Shown: positions 42,248 through 57,695 of the stretch, one piece after another
Numbering within the stretch: the stretch's first letter is position 1
Layout of the letters: each line of letters opens with the position of its first letter
DNA from: Ferruginibacter sp.
GTDB taxonomy: Bacteria > Bacteroidota > Bacteroidia > Chitinophagales > Chitinophagaceae
Assembly (NCBI GenBank): GCA_013141115.1
Contig: JABFRP010000002.1
Coordinates: 834,389 to 898,388 of the forward strand
Direction: 5' to 3'
DNA length: 64,000 nucleotides
Notes under the pieces: generated by a model
What the model saw: only the letters and a program-made list of their open reading frames with translations
What the model was told of the DNA's origin: nothing
Databases searched by the model: none
Translations under genes and position numbers: made by a program

Positions 42248-43696
42248 TCACTCTCCCACCACTTCCTCTTTCCGCTTCCTGAATTTTTTTGGATCGCTTC
42301 CATCCATCTGTACAATGGCCGGATAAAATTTACCCAACACATCCACCAACGTTGTCTGACTTTGCATCACTTCATTAATATCCTTGTAGGCAAATGGTGC
42401 TTCATCCAAGCCACCGCCAATTAATTTTACACCATGAGATGCCAATTCTTTTTTTAATGCTTCTTGTGTGATGTTAGCCAACGCTTTGGTACGACTCATT
42501 TTTCTTCCTGCACCGTGAGAAGCAGAATTTAAAGAAGCCATTTCGCCTTTACCTTTTACAATAAAGCCCGGTGCCGTCATAGAGCCAGGAATGATTCCTA
42601 ATACATCTTTACCTGCAGGTGTGGCACCTTTACGATGCACAATTACTTCGTTACCATTATACATTTCTTTCCATGCAAAGTTGTGGTGATTCTCTACCAC
42701 TGCCAATGGTTTTTCTCCAATAGCTTTTGCAATTTTTGCATGTATGGTGTGGTGACAGGCACTTGCATAATCACCTGCTAAATTCATGGCCAACCAATAT
42801 TCCATTCCTTCTTCCGTATCTAAATCCAGCCATGCCAAATGTTTGGCTTCTTTTGGCAACACCGTTTTTTGCATCGCAATTTGTGTGTAGTGGTTAGCAA
42901 TGTTGGCGCCTAATCCACGGCTTCCGCTATGGCTTAACAGTCCAACATAATTACCCACTGCCAAACCCATTGAATTTGTTGCATCCGTAATTTCAACTTT
43001 ACCAAATTCTACAAAATGGTTACCGCTACCGGAAGTACCTAATTGCTTTAATGCTTTATGTTGCAATGGTTGTAAAAAAGCAATGTCGTTGAATTCAGTT
43101 CTGTCCAATACTTCATGCTCTGTTCTTTCTGTAAACTCTCTTCCTGCACCAAACAAAGTATTGGCCACTAATTCTCTTTGAAAGTTAGCTTGTCTTTTTT
43201 TCAACTCATCAGGGTTGATGGCGAAAATGCTTAAACACATTCTGCAACCAATATCAACACCAACCGCATAAGGAATAATGGCATTGTTTGTTGCCAGCAC
43301 ACCACCGATTGGTAAACCATAACCCTGGTGTGCATCGGGCATTAATGCACCAGCAACAGCCACAGGTAATTTTGCGGCAATTTTCATTTGTGCCAATGCG
43401 CCTTCTTCAATATGCTTTGCACCAAAGACATTATAATCCACTCCCTTTTCATTCAACGGAATTTCTATTGCTTCAGCTTCTTCCACTACAATTAATTTTT
43501 CTGCTATCTTCCCCAACACTTCATCTGCCAAATAATTTTCTGGTGCAGCTAATACATCTTTCAATATCTGTAATGCTTCTTCTTCAGTTGAATGTTTAAA
43601 GTGCGTACACATGGTATGCATCGCCACACTTACCACCGGCCCTTCTTCGTAGCCAATAGCACGGATCTGTTTTCCTGTTAATTTTAATTTGCTCAT
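42248..43696 (-). CDS. rtcB: RtcB family RNA 3'-phosphate/5'-OH ligase
   Basis: 482 aa with RtcB motifs GSGNHFVEFG, HRKGAT and SASHGAGR, plus a ~60 aa N-terminal extension. Confidence 0.95.
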   Translation of the reverse strand: MSKLKLTGKQIRAIGYEEGPVVSVAMHTMCTHFKHSTEEEALQILKDVLAAPENYLADEVLGKIAEKLIVVEEAEAIEIPLNEKGVDYNVFGAKHIEEGALAQMKIAAKLPVAVAGALMPDAHQGYGLPIGGVLATNNAIIPYAVGVDIGCRMCLSIFAINPDELKKRQANFQRELVANTLFGAGREFTERTEHEVLDRTEFNDIAFLQPLQHKALKQLGTSGSGNHFVEFGKVEITDATNSMGLAVGNYVGLLSHSGSRGLGANIANHYTQIAMQKTVLPKEAKHLAWLDLDTEEGMEYWLAMNLAGDYASACHHTIHAKIAKAIGEKPLAVVENHHNFAWKEMYNGNEVIVHRKGATPAGKDVLGIIPGSMTAPGFIVKGKGEMASLNSASHGAGRKMSRTKALANITQEALKKELASHGVKLIGGGLDEAPFAYKDINEVMQSQTTLVDVLGKFYPAIVQMDGSDPKKFRKRKEEVVGE

Positions 43697-43778
43697 TTTG
43701 TTTTAATTATAAATCCTTTACTAAATATACTATAATGTTCTATTTTAATTTTGTAACTTGCTAATACAACAGTCAATC

Positions 43779-43973
43779 ATGCAACAGTCAACCACAGCAG
43801 AGAAATTCCAAAAGAGAACTGCTGAATACTTTATCGAAAAAGCAAAGCAGGCTAAGGGCAAAGAAAAATTTTTGGTTGCTCTTCAAAAGAGCAGGTATAT
43901 TTCTGATGCACTTCAAAATGGTTTATCTTTTTCCGATTTAAAAGAACAGGGCTTTAAGTTTGCAACCGTATAA
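43779..43973 (+). CDS. small hypothetical protein
   Basis: 64 aa from the ATG at 43779. Its stop overlaps the start of the next ORF. Confidence 0.4.
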   Translation: MQQSTTAEKFQKRTAEYFIEKAKQAKGKEKFLVALQKSRYISDALQNGLSFSDLKEQGFKFATV

Positions 43974-44481
43974 ATACATATTACTTAAGCCTGACTATTA
44001 CACTTTCACAACGATTGGCGGAACTGAATACCATTGTTATTTTTATACCTCCGAAGAAATTTTTTCCGATTATCCTTCACTATCTAAAAAAGTATTTGGT
44101 TTTAATATCGGTCTAAAAGATAACGTATCTCTTCAAAAAGGCCTTGATAAACGCATTGCTGCTACTGTTGTTACCATACTAAAAAACTTTATTGACGAAA
44201 AGAAAAATGCAGTAATATACATTTGTGATAATAGCGATGGCCGTGAAAAAGCCCGATATCATAAATTCTCACACTGGTTTCGTCAATATAATGACGGCAG
44301 TATTATACAGCTTAAAGGCGTTGTTCGTGCCGGTGGAACCAACATATTGAATGCATTACTGATTCATAAAGAAAATAAATACCTAAACGACTTTATTGAA
44401 GCCTACGAAATACTAACAGGTGCTTATACCAAACCAGATGATGATGAACTACAAAATATTTTGAATGACCCGGAATGGTAA
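43960..44481 (+). CDS. hypothetical protein
   Basis: 173 aa ORF with a TTG start coupled to the preceding small ORF. No family recognised. Confidence 0.45.
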   Translation: MQPYKYILLKPDYYTFTTIGGTEYHCYFYTSEEIFSDYPSLSKKVFGFNIGLKDNVSLQKGLDKRIAATVVTILKNFIDEKKNAVIYICDNSDGREKARYHKFSHWFRQYNDGSIIQLKGVVRAGGTNILNALLIHKENKYLNDFIEAYEILTGAYTKPDDDELQNILNDPEW

Positions 44482-44503
44482 TTTGTAACAACCCATCTTT
44501 CAT

Positions 44504-45031
44504 TTACTGCGCCGGTATCTTCAACCCCATTGCTTTCATGGCCAGCAAGGCTTCTGCATTGCCTAAAGCATCGTTTACCGGGTTATGATCGTGGGTGGTT
44601 TTACGAAACAGTTTTTTCCATTCTGCGTTTAAGCCGGTATCCATCTTCATGCCGCAATACAGATCGCCAATGCGTCTTGCCGAAAACCCAAAAGGATTTT
44701 TACCCAGGTAAGTATGAAAATACCAGTTGATCCATTGCCAGTCGAATGCCGGGTTATCGCTAATAAATATTGGACGATTCTTTGAATTTTCCGATAACCA
44801 TTTGGCAAAATCCTCCATCACTTTTTTAGGATCTTCAAATTGTTCGTGCTCCTGCCTGCTTATACCGCTTACCGCCAATGCTTCGGGAATCCATTGTTCC
44901 GAAATAGGTTTTGTTTTACCGTAAAAGGTTTTGCTTAATGTTGGCTCCAGCACTACGGCACCAAAGCATACCATCGAATAGGCATGTGGTATGGGACCAT
45001 CTGATTCAACATCTACTATAATGTAACTCAT
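44504..45031 (-). CDS. DEDD-type 3'-5' exonuclease (DnaQ/RNase T-like)
   Basis: 175 aa with IIVDVESDG (ExoI), FISDNPAFDW (ExoII) and HDHNPVNDA (ExoIII, DEDDh). Confidence 0.8.
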   Translation of the reverse strand: MSYIIVDVESDGPIPHAYSMVCFGAVVLEPTLSKTFYGKTKPISEQWIPEALAVSGISRQEHEQFEDPKKVMEDFAKWLSENSKNRPIFISDNPAFDWQWINWYFHTYLGKNPFGFSARRIGDLYCGMKMDTGLNAEWKKLFRKTTHDHNPVNDALGNAEALLAMKAMGLKIPAQ

Positions 45032-45060
45032 TGTTTTTGTTTTAAAATTTTAAATAATTT

Positions 45061-45113
45061 TGATACCAGCTTTAGTTTTTTATGGCATCATCGTTGCGTC
45101 GCACTCTTGTACG
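45061..45113 (+). repeat. short interspersed repeat, copy a
   Basis: tgataccagctttagttttttatggcatcatcgttgcgtcgcactcttgtacg is about 90 percent identical over ~45 nt to 47470..47516. Confidence 0.7.
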
Positions 45114-45147
45114 ACATAATTCTATTGAACTTTTATCAAAGCCTAGA

Positions 45148-45504
45148 TTAATGCCAATCATGATGGCAAAACCTGCATTGTTTTGCTAAAGGAGTTCTTG
45201 CTATTTTATTACATTTAGGACATAGGTTTAATTCCAGCTCCTCTTTATGCGCATTAAAAATCCTTTTTGCAATTCTCAATTTATAAGCCTCATAACCATC
45301 ATTTGTTAGCTCACTTATATTTTTATCACAAAGAATATCTCCCCCTTCTGTTAACACTTTATACATTAAGAGATTAGCTGCTTCGCTTTCAATTGCAGAG
45401 GCCGGCACTTTTACTGAAGCAAAGTTTACTTTTCGCCAGAAATATTTGCCACAATAATTAAAAATATATTCTACCAACTCTGGATAGAGTTTATCACTCG
45501 CCAT
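45148..45504 (-). CDS. hypothetical protein with a C-terminal zinc ribbon
   Basis: 118 aa with CPKC-x13-CRFC. Its start overlaps the stop of the upstream nucleotidyltransferase gene. Confidence 0.55.
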   Translation of the reverse strand: MASDKLYPELVEYIFNYCGKYFWRKVNFASVKVPASAIESEAANLLMYKVLTEGGDILCDKNISELTNDGYEAYKLRIAKRIFNAHKEELELNLCPKCNKIARTPLAKQCRFCHHDWH

Positions 45505-46558
45505 AATGCACCTCCCTTATTTTAATTAATAACTCATTTATACTTTCTACATTGGGTTCATCCTGCAAATTGGATTGCTGATACAACAAAGGCAACTCAT
45601 CCTTCATTGCTTCCGCCTGTTGCACTAAGTCATCATACTCAAATTTGCCTTCTTTTATAGCCAGTAGAAAATCTCTGTCTTTTCTGAAAACATTTATTCT
45701 TCCTTCTACAGCAATTTCTTTTGCCATCAGTAAAAGCCGGAACACATGCATCATATTTTTTGAGTCGTACTTTTTACCATGCTGCATGGTGGTATCATAG
45801 CGTTGCTCATTGCGTTTTGCCACCCAATCCCAATACTCTTTATGTTGTTTGCAATAGATAGAATAGGCATCTTTATTAAAATACAACATCGCTATCGGCT
45901 TTTCTCCTTTGGGAATGCTGCTTAAACTTACTTCGTTGGCATTGTCTTTTTTTGCTACGCCGGAATAATTCAATTCGTTGGAGTAATACAAATTGTAACA
46001 ATCCCTTAGATGCGCTATGGCTGCTAAACCTATTTTGCTTTGCTCCAACCCTTTTTCTTGCAGGTATTTTTTTAAAGGCAGGGCCTCTGCATCTTCATGT
46101 ACAAAACAAAAATCCAGTACCGACTTTCTTTCTTCTTCAACAGGGTTTACTATTTTCTTTTCCAATCCATAGGCTTTTTTTATTTGTGTAAAAGCATAAT
46201 TGGCAAAACTCTGTTCACATTGTTTAGATATAAACATTCCCGGTTGCAGCATATCCATGATGGGATGTTTTTGCAAAATACATTTCTCCGGTACATTCAG
46301 CATCTCCAATATATTAGGGTTGCTTTTCGATAACAATTCCATGAACCTTTTCAATTCGTAATACACAATATCATTGCTATCGTTGTTTACCTGCGCTGTA
46401 TATTCCAAACCATAAAACATATCCTTTGGCAGCACAAACACACCTTTGATATCGGTATCCGATGTTGGGGTATCCAGTCCATAAGACCTGCTGCCGGTTA
46501 TTACTTCAAAAACCAGCAGCCCGTTATTTTTTATCCATTCAATGGTTAGCTTTTGCAT
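45494..46558 (-). CDS. pol-beta superfamily nucleotidyltransferase, RlaP-like (long paralog)
   Basis: 354 aa with the motif ITGSRSYGLDTPTSDTDIKGVF (GS...DxD). Confidence 0.75.
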   Translation of the reverse strand: MQKLTIEWIKNNGLLVFEVITGSRSYGLDTPTSDTDIKGVFVLPKDMFYGLEYTAQVNNDSNDIVYYELKRFMELLSKSNPNILEMLNVPEKCILQKHPIMDMLQPGMFISKQCEQSFANYAFTQIKKAYGLEKKIVNPVEEERKSVLDFCFVHEDAEALPLKKYLQEKGLEQSKIGLAAIAHLRDCYNLYYSNELNYSGVAKKDNANEVSLSSIPKGEKPIAMLYFNKDAYSIYCKQHKEYWDWVAKRNEQRYDTTMQHGKKYDSKNMMHVFRLLLMAKEIAVEGRINVFRKDRDFLLAIKEGKFEYDDLVQQAEAMKDELPLLYQQSNLQDEPNVESINELLIKIREVHYGE

Positions 46559-47297
46559 ACAACATTTTTAAAAAGAATTCATTTAGTAACCCCATGTCGG
46601 CATTATTTACCGCCAGGTTTTCTTTTCCGGCTTCTATGTACTCAAACAAATTCAATATCCATTCATTTAATTTTTCATCCTTTTTGTGCAAATACTTTTC
46701 GCCAACAGTTGCCTTCAATGCTATTAATGTTCTCAATCTTTCCCTGTACTCTTCTTCCACATATTTCATCAGGCCTTCTATATGCATGGGCAAAACAGTA
46801 TTGTCTTTTATTATCCAGTTGCAGGAAAGTAAAGACCGTATCAAATAGAAATAACTTTTCAACTTCAACTCTTCCTTATCTTTCAGCTCTTCCCAAAACT
46901 TTATTGCCAGGGAATAGTGATGAAAGAAAACTGCGATGGGGGAATAATAACTGCCGACCAGCATTTTAAACTCCTCCTTAAAACCCGGCACCAAAAAATA
47001 TTCTATCGGCGAATTAAACCTTTCTATCAACGGTGCATTGGATTTTTTAAGCAGGGTTAGGGATTTTCTAAGATCCCAGCCTGTTATATCCAGGTCGCCA
47101 TCCATTATCTCTACCGTATCTTTTTTTACACTCAACGATAAATACCAATCCCGTTCATGCATGTATATAAAGCGGATATCAAAATCGCTATCCGGCGAAG
47201 GAAAGCCCCAGGCCCTGCTACCCGTCTCGCAGGCATAGAGGATTTTGATGTTTTTACTTTGTTCTATTTCGGTTAGTATGTGTTTTATGTTTTGCAT
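46539..47297 (-). CDS. pol-beta superfamily nucleotidyltransferase, RlaP-like (short paralog)
   Basis: 252 aa with the motif ETGSRAWGFPSPDSDFDIRFIY. It overlaps the next gene by 20 nt. Confidence 0.75.
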   Translation of the reverse strand: MQNIKHILTEIEQSKNIKILYACETGSRAWGFPSPDSDFDIRFIYMHERDWYLSLSVKKDTVEIMDGDLDITGWDLRKSLTLLKKSNAPLIERFNSPIEYFLVPGFKEEFKMLVGSYYSPIAVFFHHYSLAIKFWEELKDKEELKLKSYFYLIRSLLSCNWIIKDNTVLPMHIEGLMKYVEEEYRERLRTLIALKATVGEKYLHKKDEKLNEWILNLFEYIEAGKENLAVNNADMGLLNEFFLKMLYAKANH

Positions 47298-47535: not shown

Positions 47536-48162
47536 TTAAGCATAAATACCATCAGCATATGATTCACTTGCGGTGAATTTATAATTATTGATTTTTTCAG
47601 AAATAGCATCTAGAAAACGTTTTAGCTTAAGCATTAATAAGGCAAAATTTCTAACATTTAATAAAGTTGGTTTTTTTGAAAGATTTCCTTTCTTATCCAA
47701 AGGGTATCTATAAGCCATTGAAAAGCTATCGCCATCTGAGAGCTGCTTAATTATGATTGCTGCATCAGTAAAACTCTTTTTTAAAATATTTTTTGAGTCC
47801 TTTTTTGAATATAGTTTTATGAATTCAACCCAAAGATTTTTTAAGTCGTGATTTGTAGGGAAATTTGTATTCTGATTTAAACAATAATTTAAACTCCATA
47901 TAAACTCCTTCAATTTTAGTTCAATGCTATGCCTATATAAATATATAATAGGATAGACCAATAAATCTTTAGCCCTTTCTTCTTTAATATATGACATAAC
48001 TAATAATTCCGCAGCATCGAAATAACCCAAGTTGTAAACTGCAAATCTATGAGATTCTTCATAATCCAAGATTGCATTATTCCTCATATCACTACAGTCA
48101 CTCCTAAATAATTTATCGCCTTTTTCTAATAAAGGTGATTTCCAAATAAATTTCCTTGCCAT
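47536..48162 (-). CDS. hypothetical protein in the AT-rich cassette
   Basis: 208 aa ORF. Local composition is clearly more AT-rich than the neighbouring genes. No family assigned. Confidence 0.5.
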   Translation of the reverse strand: MARKFIWKSPLLEKGDKLFRSDCSDMRNNAILDYEESHRFAVYNLGYFDAAELLVMSYIKEERAKDLLVYPIIYLYRHSIELKLKEFIWSLNYCLNQNTNFPTNHDLKNLWVEFIKLYSKKDSKNILKKSFTDAAIIIKQLSDGDSFSMAYRYPLDKKGNLSKKPTLLNVRNFALLMLKLKRFLDAISEKINNYKFTASESYADGIYA

Positions 48163-48192
48163 ATTTATAATTAAGTATTTTTAACCTCTTTT

Positions 48193-50786: not shown

Positions 50787-50787
50787 T

Positions 50788-50812: not shown

Positions 50813-51005
50813 GACACACAACGTGATGGCTGGCGTACCTTACAGCAACAATAGCATACAGATAGTTACTACGTCTGCACTGTTGTGTTTTAAAACACTA
50901 ACCTGGTTTGCTTTCTGAAGGTGTATACCAGTCTTGCTGTTAAGCAAGCTTTTGAATTGAATTTTTACTTCAACAATATTTTAAAGAACTTCTTGTTTTA
51001 CTTTG

Positions 51006-51061: not shown

Positions 51062-51072
51062 TTATTTTTTTG

Positions 51073-51266
51073 CCACTCTTGTGCGATTCGAACGCACACT
51101 TTGCTTTCGCAACAGGCCGGCTGTAAATACGCTTCCCTACTAATTGGTAAACTTTCGGTGCACTGTAAACTGTATTCATTCAAACGAGCAGTCTGAACGC
51201 CATCTTCCGGTCACTCCACGGATACGCTTAATTTTTCCGCAGCACTTCCTTTTATGCTAAAGAGTG
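51073..51266 (-). ncRNA. 194-nt tRNA-like RNA (acceptor, D arm and T arm with a ~143-nt central region)
   Basis: The 5' end reads CACTCTT-TA-GCAT-AAAAGGAA-GTGC (51241-51266). The 3' end reads GTGCG-TTCGAAT-CGCAC-AAGAGTG-G (51073-51097). The 7-nt acceptor strands are perfectly complementary. Confidence 0.4.
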
Positions 51267-51272
51267 AAATAA

Positions 51273-52013
51273 TTATTTCCCCGGGCAATTCAATGTTTCA
51301 TAAACCTCATTTATTTCTGTTACAAATGCCCCGGTATAACTTTGTATTACCAATAAATCCTCTATGCTTGATTTAAATTTTAAAATGGTCGTTTTATCAT
51401 TTAGCCACTCATTTAAAAATTCTATACCACCATCAGCAAAAGGATTATCAATACTCAAATTCCCTTTCCTTGTCACCTTAACTCCAGACGCTATCGTTTG
51501 AACAAAATGCATTAAAGCACTGAATTCTTTTACTTCTTCCCACATTTCAGTTGTCCAGCTAATATCAAAGCCTGTTTTTGAAAGCATAATAATTACAGCT
51601 TCAAGGTCTTCAAAATCAGCAGCAGGATATTTTGTCAAGCATTTTTTAAAGAATGATTTCATATACTGCTCCAGAAAATCCGTTTCGTCTGTTGACCATT
51701 CTCCCGATCTTAAATATGCCATTCTGCTTAAAGCTATTTCTACAGAATGTGCTGGAAAATTGAATTCACTGATAAGTTCCAATAAACGTGGCAGAAAATA
51801 TTTGTACTCCACCGCTTCAATTTCTTCCGACATAGCTGAAGTATTATAGACACTCAGCAAGTCTAAAGGAATTTTTTCAACCGGTATACTCAATAGCAAT
51901 TCCTGTTCTTCTTCACTCACACAACATGGGCATACATCAAGTTTACCATTAAGTTTGTAGCGGGCAAACAGGTTGTAACCTTTTTGTATGATCTCCTTCA
52001 TTTCCTTTTCCAT
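51273..52013 (-). CDS. hypothetical protein (246 aa from M33)
   Basis: ORF 51273..52109. The ATG at 52013 is preferred because upstream of it lies the shared divergent promoter element. No family recognised. Confidence 0.55.
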   Translation of the reverse strand: MEKEMKEIIQKGYNLFARYKLNGKLDVCPCCVSEEEQELLLSIPVEKIPLDLLSVYNTSAMSEEIEAVEYKYFLPRLLELISEFNFPAHSVEIALSRMAYLRSGEWSTDETDFLEQYMKSFFKKCLTKYPAADFEDLEAVIIMLSKTGFDISWTTEMWEEVKEFSALMHFVQTIASGVKVTRKGNLSIDNPFADGGIEFLNEWLNDKTTILKFKSSIEDLLVIQSYTGAFVTEINEVYETLNCPGK

Positions 52014-52067
52014 AACACAAATCCCAATCCCTTGTGTGCAATCTATTTGCACAGTAAAAATTATTTT
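52012..52067. promoter_or_regulatory. 56-bp duplicated promoter/operator-like element, copy 2 (divergent region of the WYL gene)
   Basis: Palindrome tgtgcaa-N5-ttgcaca at 52035-52053. On the plus strand, TTTG inside the palindrome followed after 21 nt by TATTTTTA resembles a Bacteroidota -33/-7 promoter ahead of the ATG at 52093. Confidence 0.55.
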
Positions 52068-52092
52068 CACTATTTTTAAAAAAAAATTCAAA

Positions 52093-53106
52093 ATGCCTGT
52101 AAACCGCAATGCCCTAATCCGCTACCGCACTATCGACAAATGCCTGCAAAACCGCCGCCGCAAATGGACCATCGAAGACCTGATAGATGCCTGCAATGAT
52201 GCTTTGTACGAGTACGAAGGCGTGCATACCAATATCAGCATGCGTACCATCCGGCTGGATCTGAATGCCATGCGTAGTGATTCTCTCGGCTACAATGCCC
52301 CCATCATAGTAAACAACAAAAAATTTTATACTTATGAAGATGCGGAGTATTCCATTGCTAACAGTCCGCTTACTACACAAGATCTGGGCATATTGCAGGA
52401 AGTATCGCACCTACTGCGCCAGTTTAAAGGTTTCAGCCACTTTAACGAAGTGAGCGAAATGGTAAATAAACTGGAAGACAAAATTTACAGCGAACAACAC
52501 CAGCAGGCATCCGTAATTGATTTTGAAAAAAACGACTTGCTCACCGGCATTGAATGGCTGGATATTTTATACAAGGCCATTGTAAATAAAACCACCTTGC
52601 TCATCACTTACCAATCTTTTAAAGCACGCCAGGCGGCCGATATTATTTTTTATCCCTACCTGCTTAAAGAATACCGCAACCGCTGGTTTATCCTGGGTAT
52701 GAAAAAGCAGGGCAAAGAAATCATCACTTTTGCATTAGACCGTATTCAAAATATTACAGCACAGGACAAAGAACTTTTTGTGCAGCACAAAAAATTTGAG
52801 CCGCATACTTACTTCGATAATATTATTGGCGTTACCCGTAACTATGCCGAAGAGCCGACCACCATTTTATTTTGGGCCAGTGCACATCATGCACCTTATA
52901 TAAAAACTAAACCCATACATGCATCACAAAAAATAGTAGAAGAAGTAAAAGGCGGTACGCATTTCAGCATTGCCGTTATCCCCAATTTTGAAATGGAAAG
53001 AGAACTGATCGGCTTTGGTGAAGGCATTAAAATTTTATCGCCTAATAATATTGTGCGGCAGATAAAACGGAAAGTGCGTTTGATAAGCGAGCTGTACCAG
53101 GAATAA
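52093..53106 (+). CDS. WYL-domain transcriptional regulator (HTH-WYL-WCX type)
   Basis: The N-terminus MPVNRNALIRYRTIDKCLQN is typical of this family. A central WYL-like segment is YPYLLKEYRNRWFILG. Confidence 0.8.
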   Translation: MPVNRNALIRYRTIDKCLQNRRRKWTIEDLIDACNDALYEYEGVHTNISMRTIRLDLNAMRSDSLGYNAPIIVNNKKFYTYEDAEYSIANSPLTTQDLGILQEVSHLLRQFKGFSHFNEVSEMVNKLEDKIYSEQHQQASVIDFEKNDLLTGIEWLDILYKAIVNKTTLLITYQSFKARQAADIIFYPYLLKEYRNRWFILGMKKQGKEIITFALDRIQNITAQDKELFVQHKKFEPHTYFDNIIGVTRNYAEEPTTILFWASAHHAPYIKTKPIHASQKIVEEVKGGTHFSIAVIPNFEMERELIGFGEGIKILSPNNIVRQIKRKVRLISELYQE

Positions 53107-53148
53107 GGAAATTAAATTTTTCAAAACTTAACTTACCTTTCCGGTTGC

Positions 53149-54231
53149 TTAATTCATCGTCACTTCCTGCCGTCTAAACCCAAACACTTCCGTTCTTTCA
53201 ATTACATTATCTTTTTCATCGGGGTTGGCAATTTCTGCTATGGTCATAGGCTTTGTAATGCTATTGCTAAAACCTAAGTGATCCGATAAGCGTTGCGATT
53301 TTGTTGTACTCAACTTTCCAAATTCATATTTTGCAATTAACCTGCCTTTACGCATCAGTGCACTATCTACCAGTGTAAGCGAATTATTAAAAGTGCAGAT
53401 CAGTTGTACATTTAAAAAATCGGCCAGCAACCCATCGGAAATGTTCAATAAATTAGATACCGATGCATTGCCATTTAATTTTCTATCCATAATTATATTT
53501 TCTGCATCTTCAATGATCAGCACACTGTTGGGATTGCTCACCAGCAACTCAATAAAATCGGGGCTGGTAATATCCGCTGCTACATTGGGAGACACAAACA
53601 ACACCCGCTTTTTAATTTTACCAATAAGGTAACGCAGGTAAGTGGTTTTGCCTGTGCCGGGTAAACCGTGCAGTAATACAATGCCTTTGTCTTTATCTTT
53701 TGTAAGCCGCTTGCAAATGGTATCACTCACTGCTTTAAAATCATCTTCATAAAAAAGATCCAGGCTAAGCTTAGTACGTTTTACTTCCAGTTGCTTTAAC
53801 TCCAGCCCGTTTCGGCCACGGCTGATGAGGTTTATCTCTAACGGCTTTCTGCGCTGCTTCTCTTTAAACTGTTTCATCAGGTTAGTACAGTCGTTTATAA
53901 AATCTTCCTGCATCCCGCTGTGATATATTTCGCAGTAATTGGTATCAAACTCTATTACACATCCGTTTTTCATGATCATAAATGTTTCATCAAAAACGTA
54001 GCGTTTTTTCTTACTGTCGTAATAGCGGTAACCATGCTGCGACTCTATCAAATGCCCAAACTTGTCTTTGATAGCAGCAAATGCTTTTTCCCCATCAATA
54101 TTGTTGATATAGTTAGCACTGGGTATTTGCCCAAAGCAATACAGGTATAATGATTTGCCACTTAAAAATCCATTATCAAAAATGCTGTTGGCATTGATCA
54201 TTTTTTGATTGGTAGTATTTTCCATTTTCAT
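53149..54231 (-). CDS. AAA+ ATPase (classic AAA clade) with an N-terminal domain of unknown function
   Basis: 360 aa with Walker A GLPGTGKT and Walker B LIIEDAEN. Confidence 0.8.
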   Translation of the reverse strand: MKMENTTNQKMINANSIFDNGFLSGKSLYLYCFGQIPSANYINNIDGEKAFAAIKDKFGHLIESQHGYRYYDSKKKRYVFDETFMIMKNGCVIEFDTNYCEIYHSGMQEDFINDCTNLMKQFKEKQRRKPLEINLISRGRNGLELKQLEVKRTKLSLDLFYEDDFKAVSDTICKRLTKDKDKGIVLLHGLPGTGKTTYLRYLIGKIKKRVLFVSPNVAADITSPDFIELLVSNPNSVLIIEDAENIIMDRKLNGNASVSNLLNISDGLLADFLNVQLICTFNNSLTLVDSALMRKGRLIAKYEFGKLSTTKSQRLSDHLGFSNSITKPMTIAEIANPDEKDNVIERTEVFGFRRQEVTMN

Positions 54232-54358: not shown

Positions 54359-54844
54359 CTAATGCACAATTTTATTAGCGCAACTGCTGCTTGCAAAAGC
54401 ATCCGGCTTGGCTTTAAAAGCAAAGCCCATCCCCATGATATATCCCATGGCTTCTTTCAAAGCATCATTACTTTTAAAATTAGGATTGGTATTAATATCC
54501 ACATGCACTTCCATATCCACACTGTAGCGGCTAAAAATATTGCACAGCGTATACGCTACTTCAACACTCTTCGCTACTTCCACTAACATCCGTTGTTTGA
54601 TACTCATTTTTTGCAAAGTAGTTTCGTTGCAGATATACATAAACCCTCCTTTACCCTTACGTATAAAAACAATTACGGTAGCAAATTCAGTTTCCTTTCC
54701 TTTTACCTGGCTATCGGTACCAATACACACTTTCAGTTCATGGCCCATTGCTCTTTCTCTTTCAATAGTTACCTTTACTTCATCCTCAATAGGAATGCGT
54801 ATTTTTTCACCGTTTAATTTTCTCCATTGCTGTTGCTGTTCCAT
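54359..54844 (-). CDS. YkuK/DUF458 family RNase H-like protein
   Basis: 161 aa with the motif CIGTDSQVKGKETEFATVIVFIRKGKGGF, matching the IGTDSQ...TAIV..R.GKG pattern I recall for YkuK. Confidence 0.7.
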   Translation of the reverse strand: MEQQQQWRKLNGEKIRIPIEDEVKVTIERERAMGHELKVCIGTDSQVKGKETEFATVIVFIRKGKGGFMYICNETTLQKMSIKQRMLVEVAKSVEVAYTLCNIFSRYSVDMEVHVDINTNPNFKSNDALKEAMGYIMGMGFAFKAKPDAFASSSCANKIVH

Positions 54845-54973: not shown

Positions 54974-55720
54974 TCATCTTTTCCCAGCCTTTATTGAATC
55001 AAGTATTTGAATCAATGATTTGTTTTTAAATTCATTTGCTTCATTATACTTTTCAAACTCTTTATAATACCTGTGCTTGTAATGCCCATGCACCAACCGG
55101 GATTGCTTTTTCCGTAAATCTTTTCGCTCCAGGTAATTGTCCAATAATTTCATCTTCGATTCCAGCTCGGCATCTTTTATCCTTACCTTATCAATCATAT
55201 TGGGCTTTATTTTTAACACATATCTCCAAACTTCAATAAACTCATACCGCTTAATGGGTTGTTTTTTCCAATCCAATTCCCACACTTCTCTAAAAAATTG
55301 TTTTTCAGATTCGTTGAAATCCATTTTTAAAGATTGGTATTCGTAAGGCCTTAAAAGATGTTGTGGTTTTACAACATAAATTTTTCGCCCCCGTTTCCGC
55401 TTCTTTCTTTTAAAGTCTTTTTTCCAGTGGTACTCGTAAGTATTTATTTTTTTTAAAATCGTTTCAAAAAAAATCCCATGCCTGCTCCTTGCCACATCCT
55501 CCCTTACTACAAAAAACCTAACCCATCCTTTTTGTATCGGCGGATGCAATGGCTCCCACCCCAAATTTCTTTGTTGCAGATACAATGCATTTTCTTCTTT
55601 ATGCAATTGTATCAGTTGCTTATCAAAATCTTTATACCGCAGTCTTTTCTTTTGCCTTGCAGTACGTAAACGGTAACAGAGCATATCTTCTCCGTACTGT
55701 TGAATAAGTTTTGTGTCCAT
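54974..55720 (-). CDS. highly basic hypothetical protein
   Basis: 248 aa, K/R/W/Y-rich (KKDFKRKKRKRGRK). It is the first CDS downstream of the tRNA array on the same strand. Confidence 0.55.
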   Translation of the reverse strand: MDTKLIQQYGEDMLCYRLRTARQKKRLRYKDFDKQLIQLHKEENALYLQQRNLGWEPLHPPIQKGWVRFFVVREDVARSRHGIFFETILKKINTYEYHWKKDFKRKKRKRGRKIYVVKPQHLLRPYEYQSLKMDFNESEKQFFREVWELDWKKQPIKRYEFIEVWRYVLKIKPNMIDKVRIKDAELESKMKLLDNYLERKDLRKKQSRLVHGHYKHRYYKEFEKYNEANEFKNKSLIQILDSIKAGKR

Positions 55721-55843
55721 AATGTTTTATTTTGTTTCGATCGAAAACTCCTGTGCCATTGCAGCAGGTGTGTTATTTGTTTCATTATGAACCGTGTTAC
55801 TTTTTTCATTACTTCTTTTTTAAGTTGTATAAATTTATTTTTG

Positions 55844-55914
55844 CATCAATACAAGGATTCGAACCCTGACAGATAGTGTTGGAAGCTATCATGCTACCTT
55901 TACATCATACTGAT
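55844..55914 (-). tRNA. tRNA-Trp(CCA)
   Basis: Manual fold: acceptor ATCAGTA/TATTGAT, T arm CAGGG-TTCGAAT-CCTTG, anticodon arm ATAGC-TTCCAAC-ACTAT with one C-A mismatch. Confidence 0.7.
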
Positions 55915-55925
55915 AATTTTTATTG

Positions 55926-55996
55926 CGGACGAAGCAAGACTCGAACTTGCACTACCAGCTCTTCAAACAGGCACTCTACCGTTGAGTTATTCGTCC
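55926..55996 (-). tRNA. tRNA-Phe(GAA)
   Basis: Acceptor GGACGAA/TTCGTCC, T arm GCAAG-TTCGAGT-CTTGC, anticodon loop TTGAAGA. The anticodon stem has one U-U mismatch. Confidence 0.75.
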
Positions 55997-55999
55997 AGT

Positions 56000-56067
56000 T
56001 TGTTTGCAACAGGCTTGTTGATTGATCTATATTTCCTCATCGTCGAATTCACCTGTTATCAAACAAT
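56000..56067. repeat. hairpin spacer element 1 inside the tRNA array
   Basis: The arms tgtttgcaacagg (56001-56013) and cctgttatcaaaca (56052-56066) pair. It shares its terminal sequence with the element at 56569. Confidence 0.5.
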
Positions 56068-56077
56068 TTCTTTATTG

Positions 56078-56151
56078 AGTCCTGCAGAGGACTCGAACCT
56101 CCTTCTTTCGATTTGCAGTCGAATGCATACGACCATGTCTGCCAGCAGGAC
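56078..56151 (-). tRNA. tRNA-Cys(GCA)
   Basis: Acceptor GTCCTGC/GCAGGAC, T arm GGAGG-TTCGAGT-CCTCT, anticodon arm TTCGA-CTGCAAA-TCGAA. Confidence 0.8.
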
Positions 56152-56156
56152 ATTTG

Positions 56157-56240
56157 CGGAGAGTAAAGGATTCGAACCTTTGCACCGAATAAACGATGAT
56201 GGCTTAGCGGGCCACTACAATACCACTCTGTCAACTCTCC
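56157..56240 (-). tRNA. tRNA-Ser(GCT), type II, with C at position 33
   Basis: Acceptor GGAGAGT/ACTCTCC, T arm AAAGG-TTCGAAT-CCTTT, a long variable arm, and anticodon arm GTGGC-CCGCTAA-GCCAT. Confidence 0.7.
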
Positions 56241-56252
56241 TAAATATTTTTG

Positions 56253-56340
56253 CGGAGAGAAAGAGATTCGAACTCTTGATCCGCCAAATGGCGGACAGTA
56301 TGTTTTCAAGACAGCATCCATGACCATCCGGACTCTCTCC
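56253..56340 (-). tRNA. tRNA-Ser(TGA), type II, with a weak anticodon stem
   Basis: Acceptor GGAGAGA/TCTCTCC, T arm AAGAG-TTCGAAT-CTCTT, variable arm CCGCC-ATTT-GGCGG, and loop CTTGAAA closed by only 3 Watson-Crick pairs. Confidence 0.65.
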
Positions 56341-56345
56341 AATTG

Positions 56346-56485
56346 TGTGAGTGGATGGATTACTCACTTCACATTTATTTAATTTTTGTGTTCATGTATT
56401 CCGCTTCGCTCCATTTCGAACCATCTAAGTCTTTTGAACAGCAGATTTACAGTCTGCTACGAATCGCCGTCTTCGTCGCACTCAC
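56346..56485 (-). tRNA. tRNA-Tyr(GTA)-like gene with a 55-nt insertion in the T-loop (possibly a pseudogene)
   Basis: Acceptor GTGAGTG/CACTCAC, D arm ACGA-N10-TCGT, anticodon arm GCAGA-CTGTAAA-TCTGC. The T stem GATGG (56421-56425) pairs with CCATC (56354-56358) and encloses TTCGAA plus 55 nt (56360-56414) plus T. Confidence 0.5.
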
Positions 56486-56492
56486 ATTTTTG

Positions 56493-56564
56493 AGGATGAA
56501 AAAAGATTCGAACTTTTAACCCTCCCGCTAACAACGGGACGCTCTGCCATTGAGCTATTCATCG
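56493..56564 (-). tRNA. tRNA-Asn(GTT)
   Basis: Acceptor CGATGAA/TTCATCC (C1 x C72 mismatch), T arm AAAAG-TTCGAAT-CTTTT, anticodon arm TCCCG-TTGTTAG-CGGGA. Confidence 0.75.
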
Positions 56565-56568
56565 ATTA

Positions 56569-56671
56569 TTTGTTTGACCAGGGATTTTTAAAGATTGATG
56601 GGATTAAAAAAATTATAGCATCCATAATCTTTTTAATCATTTTCATCCACCCAAATCCCAGTTCAAACAAA
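56569..56671. repeat. 103-nt hairpin spacer element 2 inside the tRNA array
   Basis: The arms tttgtttgaccagggattt and aaatcccagttcaaacaaa pair at 17 of 19 positions. There is further inner pairing (gattaaaaa/tttttaatc). Confidence 0.55.
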
Positions 56672-56674
56672 CTG

Positions 56675-56748
56675 TAGTTCCGGTGAGACTCGAACTCACA
56701 ACCACCGAATTAAAAGTTCGGTGCATCTAACCATTGAGCTACGAAACT
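56675..56748 (-). tRNA. tRNA-Lys(TTT)
   Basis: Acceptor AGTTTCG/CGGAACT, T arm GTGAG-TTCGAGT-CTCAC, anticodon arm CCGAA-CTTTTAA-TTCGG. The D stem is weakened by an extra T. Confidence 0.75.
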
Positions 56749-56755
56749 ATTTTTG

Positions 56756-56828
56756 TGATGACTAAAGGACTCGAACCTTTAACCACTACCGTATCAGGAT
56801 AGCACTCTGCCAATTGAGTTAAGTCATC
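56756..56828 (-). tRNA. tRNA-Ile(GAT)
   Basis: Acceptor GATGACT/AGTCATC, T arm AAAGG-TTCGAGT-CCTTT, anticodon arm CTATC-CTGATAC-GGTAG. Confidence 0.8.
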
Positions 56829-56832
56829 TTTG

Positions 56833-56904
56833 TTGCGACCGCAAGATTCGAACTTGCATCTTCTGGCTTATGAGACCAGTATGTTACCATTACACCAAGT
56901 CACA
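56833..56904 (-). tRNA. tRNA-Met(CAT) (elongator Met or lysidine-dependent Ile2, undecided)
   Basis: Acceptor TGTGACT/GGTCGCA (2 G-U pairs), T arm GCAAG-TTCGAAT-CTTGC, anticodon arm CTGGT-CTCATAA-GCCAG. It lacks the initiator GGG/CCC stem. Confidence 0.75.
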
Positions 56905-56918
56905 ATTTTATTTTTTTG

Positions 56919-56991
56919 TTGACTTAATTGGATTCGAACCAATAACCTTTTGCGTATAAGGCAACTGCTCTCACCGTTAAGCTATAAGTCA
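56919..56991 (-). tRNA. tRNA-Ile(TAT)
   Basis: Acceptor TGACTTA/TAAGTCA, T arm ATTGG-TTCGAAT-CCAAT, anticodon loop CTTATAC. Confidence 0.7.
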
Positions 56992-56997
56992 ATTTAG

Positions 56998-57070
56998 TTG
57001 GTCTAACAAGATTCGAACTTGTATCCCCACGTTCGTAGCGTAGTATTCTCATCCGTTGAACTATAGACCA
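56998..57070 (-). tRNA. tRNA-Arg(ACG)
   Basis: Acceptor TGGTCTA/TAGACCA, T arm ACAAG-TTCGAAT-CTTGT, anticodon arm CTACG-CTACGAA-CGTGG. Confidence 0.8.
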
Positions 57071-57074
57071 ATTT

Positions 57075-57168
57075 GTGCGGCTTCCGGATTTGAACCGGAT
57101 ACGACCCTCTTATGTTTACCTCTTAGAAAAAGAGGAAGACGATCATGTTACCATTACACTCAACCGCA
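57075..57168 (-). tRNA. atypical 94-nt tRNA-like gene (anticodon assignment ambiguous; the best hairpin gives TTC)
   Basis: Acceptor TGCGGTT/AGCCGCA, D arm GTGT-AATGGTA-ACAT, T arm TCCGG-TTCAAAT-CCGGA. The 44-nt central region holds the hairpin CCTCT-TTTTCTA-AGAGG plus a second AAGAGG copy. Confidence 0.45.
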
Positions 57169-57170
57169 TT

Positions 57171-57243
57171 GGTTGACTTCGGGTCTCGAACCCTGTTCCC
57201 CACATTCACAGTGTGGTACTTTACCAGTTAAGCTAAAGCCAAC
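57171..57243 (-). tRNA. tRNA-His(GTG)
   Basis: Acceptor GTTGGCT/AGTCAAC, anticodon arm CCACA-CTGTGAA-TGTGG. The T arm CAGGG-TTCGAGA-CCCGA is imperfect. Confidence 0.7.
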
Positions 57244-57253
57244 ATTTAATAAG

Positions 57254-57325
57254 TGCAGCATGAGTGATTCGAACACTCTCCTCCGATTTGGAAGACCGGC
57301 ACGCCGCCATCAACGCATATACTGC
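57254..57325 (-). tRNA. tRNA-Gly(TCC)
   Basis: Acceptor GCAGTAT/ATGCTGC, T arm GAGTG-TTCGAAT-CACTC, anticodon arm CCGGT-CTTCCAA-ATCGG. Confidence 0.8.
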
Positions 57326-57335
57326 AATTTTTTTG

Positions 57336-57406
57336 TTATCGAGGATAGATTCGAACTATCAACTTCAGAGTCAAATTCTGAAATGTTGCCATTACACCAC
57401 TCGATA
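57336..57406 (-). tRNA. tRNA-Gln(TTG)
   Basis: Acceptor TATCGAG/CTCGATA, T arm GATAG-TTCGAAT-CTATC, anticodon arm TCAGA-ATTTGAC-TCTGA. Confidence 0.8.
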
Positions 57407-57416
57407 ATTTTTTTTG

Positions 57417-57488
57417 CGGTTCGTATGAGAATCGAACTCATAGCTTCTGATAGACAATCAGAAATGTTAGCCGTTACACTAACGAACC
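57417..57488 (-). tRNA. tRNA-Asp(GTC) with U at position 37
   Basis: Acceptor GGTTCGT/ACGAACC, T arm ATGAG-TTCGATT-CTCAT, anticodon arm TCTGA-TTGTCTA-TCAGA. Confidence 0.75.
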
Positions 57489-57543
57489 GTTATAGTGGAG
57501 TACTGACTGAAGCAATACTGCACACTATGTTTCAAAGGGCTTG

Positions 57544-57616
57544 CAGTCTGTACCGGATTCGAACCGGTATTGTCAAGTAGAAAGCTTGATATCCTGAACC
57601 ATTAGATCAACAGACC
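57544..57616 (-). tRNA. tRNA-Glu(TTC) with U at position 37
   Basis: Acceptor GGTCTGT/ACAGACT, T arm ACCGG-TTCGAAT-CCGGT, anticodon arm TCAAG-CTTTCTA-CTTGA. Confidence 0.75.
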
Positions 57617-57622
57617 ATTTTG

Positions 57623-57695
57623 TATAGTAGGCAAGATTCGAACTTGCAGCCTCTCCGGTCCAGGCGGAGTATCCAACCAATTGGAATGCTACTAT
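57623..57695 (-). tRNA. tRNA-Pro(TGG) with C at position 33
   Basis: Acceptor ATAGTAG/CTACTAT, T arm GCAAG-TTCGAAT-CTTGC, anticodon arm CTCCG-CCTGGAC-CGGAG. Confidence 0.7.

Follow-up and report, generated by a model that had tools for sequence, protein, structure and literature searches.

A chromosomal locus of the Chitinophagaceae that joins a tRNA array and YkuK and AAA+ genes to an SPFH/RtcB gene set with a double tRNA-like RNA

Introduction

Arrays of transfer RNA (tRNA) genes and RNA-repair genes have been linked before. In Anabaena, a long tRNA array is kept silent, is induced, as is rtcB, when translation is impaired, and aids survival (PMC8421152, PMC10272220). In some cyanobacteria rtcB neighbors such long arrays and is co-regulated with them (PMC8421152), and the TrcR regulon of Anabaena sp. 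PCC 7120 brings together the trn operon and rtcB with genes for a slipin and for an AAA ATPase (PMC10272220). The authors of these studies already propose that RtcB repair and the array tRNAs jointly maintain the tRNA pool (PMC8421152, PMC10272220). In a second line of work, a Band-7 (SPFH) protein, a tRNA-like RNA, RtcB, and RlaP were predicted to form a repair system (Burroughs and Aravind 2016, as relayed in bioRxiv 10.1101/312249); that source describes the Band-7-associated RNA, b7a-tRNA, as one with a strong likeness to a genuine tRNA. Here we describe a locus that carries components of both kinds in the chromosomal DNA of a soil bacterium of the Chitinophagaceae, Ferruginibacter sp. The whole stretch that we analyzed, called the window below, comprises 64,000 nucleotides (nt) of contig JABFRP010000002.1 (assembly GCA_013141115.1, positions 834,389 to 898,388), and the locus runs from position 42248 to about 58218 of it.

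The likeness to the Anabaena trn operon lies in a long same-strand array and in the association of rtcB, a slipin-family gene, and an AAA-family ATPase gene with it; for the slipin and the AAA protein it is a likeness of annotation names only. In Anabaena the genes are dispersed and the array lies on a plasmid, whereas in the Chitinophagaceae the parts are physically fused. Control also differs: the ribbon-helix-helix repressor TrcR acts there through promoter repeats, while here we find an apparent switch of leader open reading frame (ORF) and terminator, with a WYL regulator in some genomes. Finally, cyanobacterial arrays carry an HNH endonuclease, whereas those of the Chitinophagaceae are partnered by a YkuK-family protein, for which tblastn against the plasmid collection returned no cyanobacterial match. 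Because the same four kinds of component are dispersed yet co-regulated in Anabaena, their functional link would be independent of adjacency.

The Band-7/b7a-tRNA operons share with our locus an SPFH gene, a tRNA-like RNA directly upstream of it, and then RtcB and RlaP. We found this slipin subfamily with a single upstream tRNA-like gene, RtcB, and RlaP in Burkholderia stagnalis and Subdoligranulum, and the Burkholderia b7a-type RNA scores 42 bits as a tRNA. While b7a-tRNA is an authentic-like single cloverleaf, the Chitinophagaceae RNA is about 240 nt long, has two permuted modules, and forms a pseudoknot; it is an elaborated variant of the b7a-tRNA. The Chitinophagaceae operon is also joined to a tRNA array, YkuK, and AAA+, unlike the Band-7 examples of other phyla: the loci of Burkholderia, Subdoligranulum, and Escherichia coli STEC639 contain no array, YkuK, or AAA gene. 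The E. coli example (L169, CP061233.1, 6468-8922) is a small island between rluF/DUF3811 and lysC that carries a T-arm-like sequence and encodes an RlaP-like nucleotidyltransferase and a slipin of this subfamily (36% identity); tblastn detected no RtcB in it.

Two further systems invite comparison. The Salmonella rsr-yrlBA-rtcBA operon also places a tRNA-mimic RNA beside RtcB, and the order of T-arm, loop-closed acceptor hairpin, and D-arm in YrlA recurs in the Chitinophagaceae RNA. The latter differs in matching the YrlA model below threshold (37 against 69 bits) and in having a second tRNA-like module and a pseudoknot. In Salmonella the partner is the TROVE protein Ro60/Rsr and the regulator is RtcR; here the partner is SPFH, with a WYL regulator or an attenuator, and Pfam detects no TROVE domain among the region's ORFs. 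The tRNA clusters of large phages (Phaeobacter phage MD18 and T4-like Vibrio and Pseudomonas phages) are likewise same-strand arrays with YkuK embedded or adjacent and with atypical tRNAs. They are viral, however, and lack SPFH, RtcB, and AAA+ within 6 kb, whereas the Chitinophagaceae locus is chromosomal.

An earlier note on this DNA (the original prediction) had proposed a single system that both repairs and replaces damaged tRNAs, in a combination not known to have been described as a unit. The novelty has to be divided. The Band-7/RNA/RtcB/RlaP core was predicted in 2016, and the idea of repair plus replacement is not new because the work on the Anabaena array and rtcB already proposes it; the fusion, however, is new. 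All parts are physically joined, an arrangement kept throughout a Bacteroidota family, and new besides this are the YkuK partner shared with phage arrays, the double YrlA-like version of the Band-7-associated RNA, and a putative leader-ORF attenuator in place of a repressor.

Results

Core genes are co-located and collinear across the family

The core of the locus consists of six elements in the window, in which domains were called with Pfam and tRNAs with ARAGORN and Rfam:

42248-43696, minus strand: RtcB 3'-phosphate RNA ligase (PF01139; Pfam 5e-84, 283 bits against a cutoff of 27)
49246-50349, minus strand: SPFH/Band-7 'slipin' with an extra N-terminal domain (Pfam 6e-27)
50640-50877, minus strand: double tRNA-like RNA of about 240 nt (covariation across 78 distinct loci)
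53149-54231, minus strand: AAA+ ATPase of the classical clade (Pfam AAA 4e-10)
54359-54844, minus strand: YkuK-family RNase H-like protein (PF04308; Pfam 7e-38, 130 bits)
55843-57695, minus strand: tRNA array with 17 intact genes for 15 amino acids (ARAGORN and Rfam; no CCA encoded)

We surveyed the neighborhood of this locus with the SPFH protein as anchor, because a 10-kb flank on each side of it spans the whole island. One genome per species was scanned, 484 genomes held a relative, and the best 80 of these were examined; all are Chitinophagaceae (Ferruginibacter, Niastella, Longitalea, Puia, Lacibacter, Terrimonas, and others), and their SPFH proteins show 71-94% identity. Components were counted by tblastn with the window proteins and by ARAGORN on the relatives' loci, and the denominators are the loci with enough flank: 55 on the upstream side of SPFH, 59 on the downstream side, and 49 on both. 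A single same-strand order recurs, with accessories in brackets: tRNA array, (basic protein), YkuK, AAA, (WYL, on the other strand), non-coding gap, SPFH, (RlaP pair and zinc ribbon), (DEDDh exonuclease), RtcB. RtcB lies downstream of SPFH on the same strand in 54/59 loci, at a median gap of 1.2 kb and a minimum of 47 nt. Upstream of SPFH, YkuK is found in 46/55 loci, AAA in 38/55, at least three tRNAs in 48/55, and at least ten in 27/55. The full combination of at least three tRNAs, YkuK, and RtcB is present in 36 of the 49 loci with both flanks.

We used the outer neighbors of the window's island as a control. The two-component system on one side is kept in 3/47 loci and the 455-residue protein on the other (40812-42179) in 5/54, while in the same comparison the internal genes are kept in 39/47 to 50/54. 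Since the flanking genes are so rarely retained, the internal linkage far exceeds ordinary synteny. The expectation that chance neighbors would never recur together was thus put to the family, and in dozens of Chitinophagaceae species the core is found co-located and collinear. We conclude that the juxtaposition of tRNA array, YkuK, AAA+, tRNA-like RNA, SPFH, and RtcB is not random and that these six are co-located, co-oriented, and collinear.

Pfam reproduced every domain call of the original prediction at its position (RtcB, DEDDh, two RlaP, AbiV, SPFH, WYL, AAA+, and YkuK), and the profile searches uphold the assignments of RlaP, YkuK, and SPFH, for which a failure had been named as damaging. 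The single unit drawn there, however, is both too wide and too short. The core set recurs, but WYL (8/55 loci), the RlaP pair (12/59), DEDDh (10/59), and AbiV (0/59) are lineage-specific accessories outside the conserved unit. The genes named between 42248 and 57695 are there, but the unit runs on to about 58218, because a conserved leader region lies beyond the array.

The tRNA array is variable and divergent

From its first gene the array reads Pro-UGG, Glu, Asp, Gln-UUG, Gly-UCC, His, Arg-ACG, Ile-UAU, Met, Ile-GAU, Lys, Asn, Ser-UGA, Ser-GCU, Cys, Phe, and Trp. These 17 intact genes and two aberrant ones are packed into 1.85 kb, all on the minus strand. Of the 19 genes counted previously, 17 therefore stand, and the other two are a split tRNA-Tyr and a non-canonical tRNA-like element. 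The description of the array as a near-complete tRNA set is an overstatement, since only 15 amino acids are represented, Leu, Val, Thr, and Ala are absent, and Tyr is disrupted.

The collinear order is common to more than 60 loci, with a family backbone of Pro, Glu, Asp, Gln, Gly, His, X, Arg, Ile-UAU, Met, Ile-GAU, (Val), Lys, Asn, Tyr, Ser, Ser, Cys, Phe, and Trp. Across the family the content is skewed to split codon boxes (Phe, Lys, Asn, His, Asp, Ser-GCU, Ile, Gln, Met, Glu, Tyr, Cys, and Trp), with few genes for Leu, Val, Thr, and Ala. It is split-box tRNAs that anticodon nucleases usually attack. Among relatives the array holds between 0 and 18 genes, with piecemeal losses, pseudogenes, hairpin insertions, and mutated anticodons (His-AUG, Asn-AUU, Tyr-AUA, and Cys-ACA). 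The array is missing from four loci for which the full 10 kb upstream is available, and YkuK is retained in three of these; loci that retain YkuK, AAA, SPFH, and RtcB can be array-free. The mean pairwise identity of orthologous array tRNAs is 0.61-0.85, nearly every species has its own sequence, and many of the tRNAs have AU-rich acceptor stems with a first base other than G. Because of this variable size, the losses, mutated anticodons, and absences, and the low identity, the array looks like a set of dispensable, fast-evolving extra genes. Its distribution is not the patchy, horizontally spread one that characterizes L-arrays: it is family-wide and in fixed order relative to its neighbors.

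Two positions of the array are aberrant:

56341-56491, minus strand: tRNA-Tyr(GUA) with an insertion of about 58 nt in the T-loop (compared with the intact Tyr genes of L003, L004, and L005)
57071-57170, minus strand: non-canonical tRNA-like element between tRNA-His and tRNA-Arg (fold and alignment; covarying stems in at least 27 loci)

The interrupted tRNA-Tyr is probably a pseudogene. Palindromic inserts (CTCCCGATAG...CTATCGGGAG) also occur in several relatives in the D region of tRNA-Pro, their first tRNA (L006, L014, L022, L035, and L076). In the second element the acceptor, D, and T arms are normal, and in place of the anticodon arm stand a 9-bp and a 6-bp stem, separated by a 7-nt bulge and ending in a UUUCU loop; ARAGORN labels the element variously across loci as Arg-UCU, Glu, Ser, or a tRNA with a 4-base anticodon. 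A tRNA with a protein-spliced intron would fit RtcB, and we rejected this idea: the element lacks a 7-nt anticodon loop with U33, the position-37/38 geometry, and a bulge-helix-bulge, and its arm is a continuous bulged rod.

Three side observations concern the array and its surroundings. A tRNA-Ile(UAU) gene lies at 56918-56991 on the minus strand and is present in 17 other loci too. Ile-UAU is unusual in bacteria, where AUA is normally read by a lysidine-modified CAU tRNA, and such a gene would free AUA decoding from TilS. Conserved long hairpins that are not tRNAs occupy the Lys-Asn spacer (56565-56673, -39 kcal/mol) and the Cys-Phe spacer (55997-56076), both on the minus strand; the Lys-Asn hairpin is not repeated elsewhere within the window. 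In one relative with a 6.5-Mb genome (L003, 2412-4267), genes for a 2H-phosphoesterase (LigT/2'-5' RNA ligase family) and a radical-SAM protein are found some 1.8 kb upstream of the array, separated from it by small unannotated ORFs, which places another RNA-end-healing enzyme nearby.

A leader ORF and two terminators precede the array

The region between the array and position 58218 holds four elements, all preceding the first tRNA gene:

58069-58218, minus strand: leader ORF 1, 49 codons (MHQQNCKQQ...NITRPCKVNE; from translation; in-frame ORF in 41 loci)
58014-58046, minus strand: intrinsic terminator T1, GCCCGGTCGT-loop-ACGACCGGGC-UUUUU (from the sequence)
57881-57976, minus strand: small hydrophobic ORF (METLHMLKFLL...) with a canonical Shine-Dalgarno sequence, AAGGAGG
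57723-57774, minus strand: conserved box UGCAGAAGGAGGAA followed by intrinsic terminator T2 (terminator scan)

In its family form (GCCCGGUCG...CGACCGGGC-U tract), T1 stands upstream of the array in 47 loci. Of the 52 occurrences of the motif, 47 are located no more than 900 nt upstream of an array, L007 has one at the head of its main tRNA cluster, and two head YkuK/AAA in loci without an array. About 48 nt upstream of T1 lies ACGACCG, a copy of the 3' arm of T1 that can pair with its 5' arm as a would-be antiterminator. This copy tracks variants of the arm: where the T1 arms have GGCC, the upstream copy has GGCCG. The copy falls inside the leader ORF, where it is read in frame as Arg-Pro (CGA CCG, within 58087-58093). 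The ORF mostly spans 49-53 codons across the 41 loci, and its frame is open for at least 45 codons in 40/41, compared with 9/41 and 5/41 for the other two frames. Its stop codon lies at a median of 21 nt after the ACGACCG copy and 27 nt before T1. This arrangement suggests that the array operon is headed by a putative antiterminator/terminator switch.

The four amino acids that the array does not serve, Leu, Val, Thr, and Ala, are scarce in the leader. In the 41 leader peptides they make up 19.6% of residues, against 29.6% in the window proteins (nominal p of 8e-24, kinship ignored), and the peptides are rich in His, Arg, Cys, Gln, Pro, and Trp. A small ORF led by a Shine-Dalgarno sequence occupies the position after T1 in about 20 of 53 loci; in the window its peptide is hydrophobic, and in other loci the peptide is of a different type (MKFL...HPAEFxLR). 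The Shine-Dalgarno sequence of the window's ORF stands out, as none of the 35 long ORFs of the window has GGAG or GAGG at positions -16 to -4. The box before T2, also written UGCAGAAGGAGG, is present with a covarying hairpin in 21 distinct loci, and T2 ends 28 nt before tRNA-Pro, the first gene of the array. The purine box also contains a 5-codon mini-ORF, MQKEE, which we set aside, as its frame is not conserved. Taken together, two terminators and a leader ORF suggest that expression of the array may be conditional. Promoter scans gave no signal: the Bacteroidetes consensus TTTG-N-TAnnTTTG is absent from the operon strand in the region and its matches are below chance window-wide, as are those of a sigma-70 scan.

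The known amino-acid attenuators (trp, his, thr, and pheA) are similar in having a short conserved leader ORF just before an intrinsic terminator and an alternative pairing with a segment inside the ORF, so that ribosome position decides termination. The putative switch described here differs in that it would control tRNA genes rather than biosynthetic enzymes, and in its build: it has three segments, with a duplicated terminator arm that is read as Arg-Pro. In place of a single-codon run there is the general bias away from Leu, Val, Thr, and Ala, and behind the switch come a second small ORF with its Shine-Dalgarno sequence and a second terminator.

The RNA upstream of SPFH is a double tRNA-like molecule

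SPFH is the most conserved protein of the locus, with 71-95% identity across the family, and its nearest homologues bear Ferruginibacter names. The original prediction saw in it a slipin lacking a transmembrane segment, preceded by tRNA-like elements, and both points hold up. We find no hydrophobic N-terminal segment in SPFH on reading its sequence alone, with no transmembrane predictor applied. The tRNA-like elements are real: Rfam matches a tRNA at 50655-50714 (29.6 bits) and YrlA (RF02553) at 50756-50820, the latter at 37 bits and hence below the gathering threshold of 69. ARAGORN calls no tRNA in this RNA of the window. No phage homologue of SPFH was found at 1e-20.

A conserved non-coding stretch that starts with the motif CTGTATGCT precedes SPFH in 78 distinct loci, and in these the double tRNA-like RNA lies 290-530 nt upstream of the gene. 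Its 5' hairpin is followed by module 1, composed of a closing stem, a T-arm, an acceptor-like hairpin, and a D-arm, which is exactly the domain order of the tRNA-like part of YrlA; the YrlA match aligns to this module. Module 2 has a T-arm, a hairpin, a D-arm, and an anticodon-like stem-loop. At its 3' side stands a hairpin whose loop pairs with a downstream GGUGA to form a pseudoknot.

RNAalifold on the 78-locus alignment gave 35 pairs, 30 of them with compensatory changes. We extended this fold with the 5' hairpin, two pairs of the anticodon-like stem, and the pseudoknot, giving 45 pairs. Standard pairs form in 95.2% of alignment cells, against 79.1% in shuffled alignments and about 44% when the partners are slid, and the covariation score is 0.49 against 0.18 and about 0.09, respectively. 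Changes on both sides occur in 38/45 pairs, and none of 500 shuffles attains any of the observed values. These results strongly support a covarying double tRNA-like molecule with the permuted order of YrlA and a pseudoknot.

YkuK accompanies tRNA arrays in bacteria and large phages

The YkuK/DUF458 family has been classified near RNase H1 (PMC3985635). The window's YkuK protein is 100% identical to an NCBI entry labelled 'Ferruginibacter sp.'. In our protein, D44, E89, E112, H114, and D116 are invariant from the Chitinophagaceae to phages. The homologues in large phages are 30-40% identical to it, and the phage protein family is phrog_11311. In Phaeobacter phage MD18 (L086) the homologue, at 8040-8525, lies inside a 25-tRNA array. 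Among 83 viral contigs with YkuK, a scan that included loci L089-L168, ARAGORN found three or more same-strand tRNAs within 6 kb in 66, and 56 of the 83 have one at a distance of no more than 1 kb. We found no link between YkuK/DUF458 and tRNA arrays in the literature searched. In schizo-T4-like Vibrio phages (phage 1.081.O, L088, 6462-8462), the YkuK homologue adjoins a DUF2828 protein, a family that we take to be related to Ro/TROVE.

The neighboring AAA+ ATPase has an uncharacterised N-terminal region of about 170 residues. Its best matches in the PDB are BCS1, Rpt3, and AFG2, and it falls into a phage protein family as well (phrog_14322, 7.8e-24). Between YkuK and the array lies one accessory gene:

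54974-55720, minus strand: basic protein of 248 residues, isoelectric point 9.96 (accessory, 5/55 loci)

The basic protein has no match in Pfam, NCBIfam, PHROGs, or the PDB.

RtcB has a complete active site and lies among variable accessory genes

Aligned to solved RtcB structures, the RtcB of the window has all active-site motifs intact: PDAHQGYG (PDAHxGYG), DIGC, GSGNHF, HSGSRG, HHN, and SHGAGR. They comprise the metal-binding Cys/His residues and the motifs of the His nucleophile. We conclude that it is an RNA ligase with a complete active site and predict that it has GTP-dependent sealing activity. The genes between it and SPFH are accessory or variable:

43960-44481, plus strand: DUF6169 protein (Pfam 3e-21), on the opposite strand
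44504-45031, minus strand: DEDDh 3'-5' exonuclease (Pfam Rv2179c-like 1e-7)
45148-45504, minus strand: zinc-ribbon protein of 118 residues, with a C-terminal CxxC...CxxC ribbon (CPKC...CRFC)
45494-46558, minus strand: RlaP-N plus extension, 354 residues (Pfam 8e-27, N-terminal half only)
46539-47297, minus strand: RlaP, 252 residues (Pfam 4e-66)
47536-49042, minus strand: AT-rich insertion of three ORFs, the last being HEPN_AbiV (GC content 27.8%; window-specific, in a variable slot)
48524-49042, minus strand: HEPN_AbiV (PF18728; Pfam 6e-12, 46 bits against a cutoff of 27)

DUF6169 adjoins RtcB in many related loci. The exonuclease translation has the DEDDh motifs DVESD and H-x4-D, and it matches the 'effector exonuclease' model of PADLOC at 2e-38, far more strongly than its Pfam families. 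RlaP adds one or two nucleoside monophosphates to the 3' ends of damaged RNA (PMC12776372). In the window the two RlaP genes overlap by 20 nt, and throughout the cassette of RlaP, RlaP-N, and zinc ribbon (45148-47297) stop and start codons overlap between genes; where the cassette occurs, RlaP is always paired. The slot of the AbiV insertion holds an unrelated AbiV protein of 507 residues in L005. The three ORFs of the AbiV region are not fragments of that gene, as tblastn detected no similarity.

Discussion

We consider it somewhat more probable than not, at roughly 0.55, that this is a functionally coupled, stress-gated locus for tRNA replacement and RNA repair. It would comprise two modules that both respond to damage of the translation apparatus. 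Module A would run from the leader ORF/terminator switch through the presumed supernumerary tRNA array to the putative YkuK nuclease and the AAA+ ATPase, and module B from the double tRNA-like RNA through SPFH and, where present, RlaP and DEDDh to RtcB. In a healthy cell, ribosomes would translate the leader of about 50 codons to its stop and cover the in-frame ACGACCG, so that T1 forms; T2 would be a second block, and the array operon would be off. When translation fails because tRNAs are cleaved or depleted or ribosomes are poisoned, the leader ribosome would stall early or be absent. The uncovered ACGACCG could then pair with the 5' arm of T1, and RNA polymerase would read into the array.

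The array would supply sequence-divergent tRNAs, mainly for split codon boxes, as replacements, decoys, or both. YkuK, with its predicted RNase H fold, and AAA+ may process the polycistronic precursor or clear damaged tRNA and stalled complexes. RtcB would reseal breaks with 2',3'-cyclic phosphate or 3'-phosphate and 5'-OH ends, with an SPFH oligomer and the tRNA-like RNA as a possible scaffold or cofactor. RlaP, where present, may restore missing 3' nucleotides while DEDDh trims ends, and WYL could add transcriptional control of module B in some genomes.

Several observations weigh against this proposal. The counts are inflated by shared descent, because the 80 loci all belong to a single family. 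Within the window A and B form separate transcription units, between which a convergent WYL gene and the opposite-strand DUF6169 gene intervene, and for this reason the coupling of the modules rests on their neighborhood. The AlphaFold model of YkuK is weak (predicted local distance difference test score of 64.6, built with only close homologues), and Foldseek with this model gave no match at E up to 1e-3, with weak hits to PIWI, endonuclease V, and UvrC. The link to phages is confined to YkuK, because the AAA homologues of the two jumbo phages that we checked, XacN1 and PA5oct, lie away from tRNAs. The leader shows only a partial codon bias, with Phe, Glu, and Gly depleted as well. For a leader that is wholly untranslated, moreover, the attenuator model has no demonstrated block to read-through.

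The first alternative is that two unrelated operons are neighbors by descent: an attenuator-run tRNA/YkuK/AAA operon beside a Band-7/RNA/RtcB operon, with no cooperation between them. The separate transcription units and the single family sampled are in line with this, as are the repair core standing alone in Burkholderia, Subdoligranulum, and E. coli and the YkuK-bearing phage arrays without RtcB or SPFH. Against it, adjacency and orientation persist while the flanking genes turn over and while the space between the modules is repeatedly remodelled among relatives, and the Anabaena components are co-regulated though dispersed. On balance, we regard independent neighbors as unlikely.

Slightly less likely, in our estimate, is that the locus is domesticated cargo of a phage or mobile element with a role in phage-host conflict and not in a general response to translational stress. 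It might then confer immunity against anticodon nucleases and other ribotoxins, or form a reversible abortive-infection arm in which HEPN/AbiV damages and RtcB undoes. YkuK and AAA do belong to phage protein families, YkuK-linked tRNA arrays are typical of large phages, and the array tRNAs, Ile-UAU among them, are atypical in their AU-rich acceptor stems. In two loci the variable slot holds HEPN/AbiV genes, DEDDh matches an effector model of PADLOC, and WYL regulators are common in defence islands. Against this, no integrase, repeats, or attachment site was noticed in the survey of ORFs and domains in the region, in which no dedicated search was run, PADLOC recognised no known defence system at the locus, AbiV is missing from 59/59 relatives, and SPFH has no phage match. 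Additionally, the leader switch would sense translation itself and not a phage cue.

A housekeeping tRNA operon, with YkuK and AAA as ordinary tRNA-maturation factors and the attenuator tuning tRNA supply to growth, would suit an array that is widespread in the family at a comparable position and a leader that senses tRNA availability for feedback, but it is very improbable given the piecemeal losses, pseudogenes, and mutated anticodons of an array of 0-18 genes, the 61-85% identity of array tRNAs within one family when housekeeping tRNAs are much more conserved, and the core loci without an array. Ile-GAU normally lies in ribosomal RNA operons and Trp next to secE-nusG, so the array copies of both would probably be extra.

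A bolder version of the stress-gated repair and replacement locus, which we advance tentatively and hold to be possible rather than probable, is a self-contained translation backup kit. Its attenuator would gauge tRNAs and ribosomes and turn on divergent tRNAs, a YkuK tRNA-array nuclease, and an AAA+ unfoldase, while a two-headed tRNA-mimic RNA would load an SPFH cage with RtcB to reseal tRNAs. If this is true, YkuK would be a previously unrecognised enzyme of tRNA-array maintenance or processing common to bacteria and large phages, and with the attenuator a tRNA-integrity sensor would have been found in control of tRNA genes for the first time.

The locus bears on several wider questions. One is the purpose of long 'cryptic' tRNA arrays, since in this locus an RNA ligase, and apparently also a translation-sensing switch, is hard-wired to the array. 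If the attenuator works as proposed, there would be direct feedback from tRNA integrity to the expression of spare tRNAs, with consequences for survival of anticodon nucleases, ribosome-targeting antibiotics, and phage attack. The tight association of YkuK/DUF458 with tRNA arrays in bacteria and phages gives a concrete hypothesis for the function of this family. To our knowledge, the Band-7-associated tRNA-like RNA has never been validated experimentally; the one described here is large and strongly covarying, and thus suited to structural and pull-down work. Niastella caeni and Longitalea arenae are among the cultivable soil bacteria that carry this compact locus.

Additional features of the window

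Between SPFH and AAA the window holds three accessory elements:

51065-51260, minus strand: structured RNA, about 200 nt long, closed by a stem and carrying a T-arm-like hairpin on its 3' side
51273-52070, minus strand: acidic protein of 265 residues (annotated gene call)
52093-53106, plus strand: WYL and WCX regulator of 337 residues (Pfam WYL 1.3e-12, WCX 5.9e-8)

The WYL gene is divergent from the RNA-SPFH side, and its true start is about 52093, following the annotated call of a 337-residue gene. PADLOC also matches the protein to WYL (5e-22). Pfam finds no helix-turn-helix match in it at E up to 0.01; its N-terminal MPVNRNALIRYRTIDKCL presumably resembles the winged helix-turn-helix of such regulators. 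The acidic protein matches no family in searches that included Pfam, PADLOC, and PHROGs, and among relatives it occurs only in L008. For the 200-nt RNA, RNAalifold on eight sequences gave 52 pairs, 27 of them with compensatory changes, and Rfam gave no match at E up to 10. The RNA is found in 10 of about 78 loci, 6 of which carry WYL, and in some loci it sits directly upstream of the tRNA array or inside it.

Elsewhere in the window, two cobalamin riboswitches (17877-18073 and 20394-20581, minus strand; 101 and 115 bits) lie upstream of large minus-strand ORFs. Stand-alone genes for tRNA-Gln(CUG) at 20681-20752 and tRNA-Arg(CCG) at 13275-13347 are unrelated to the island.

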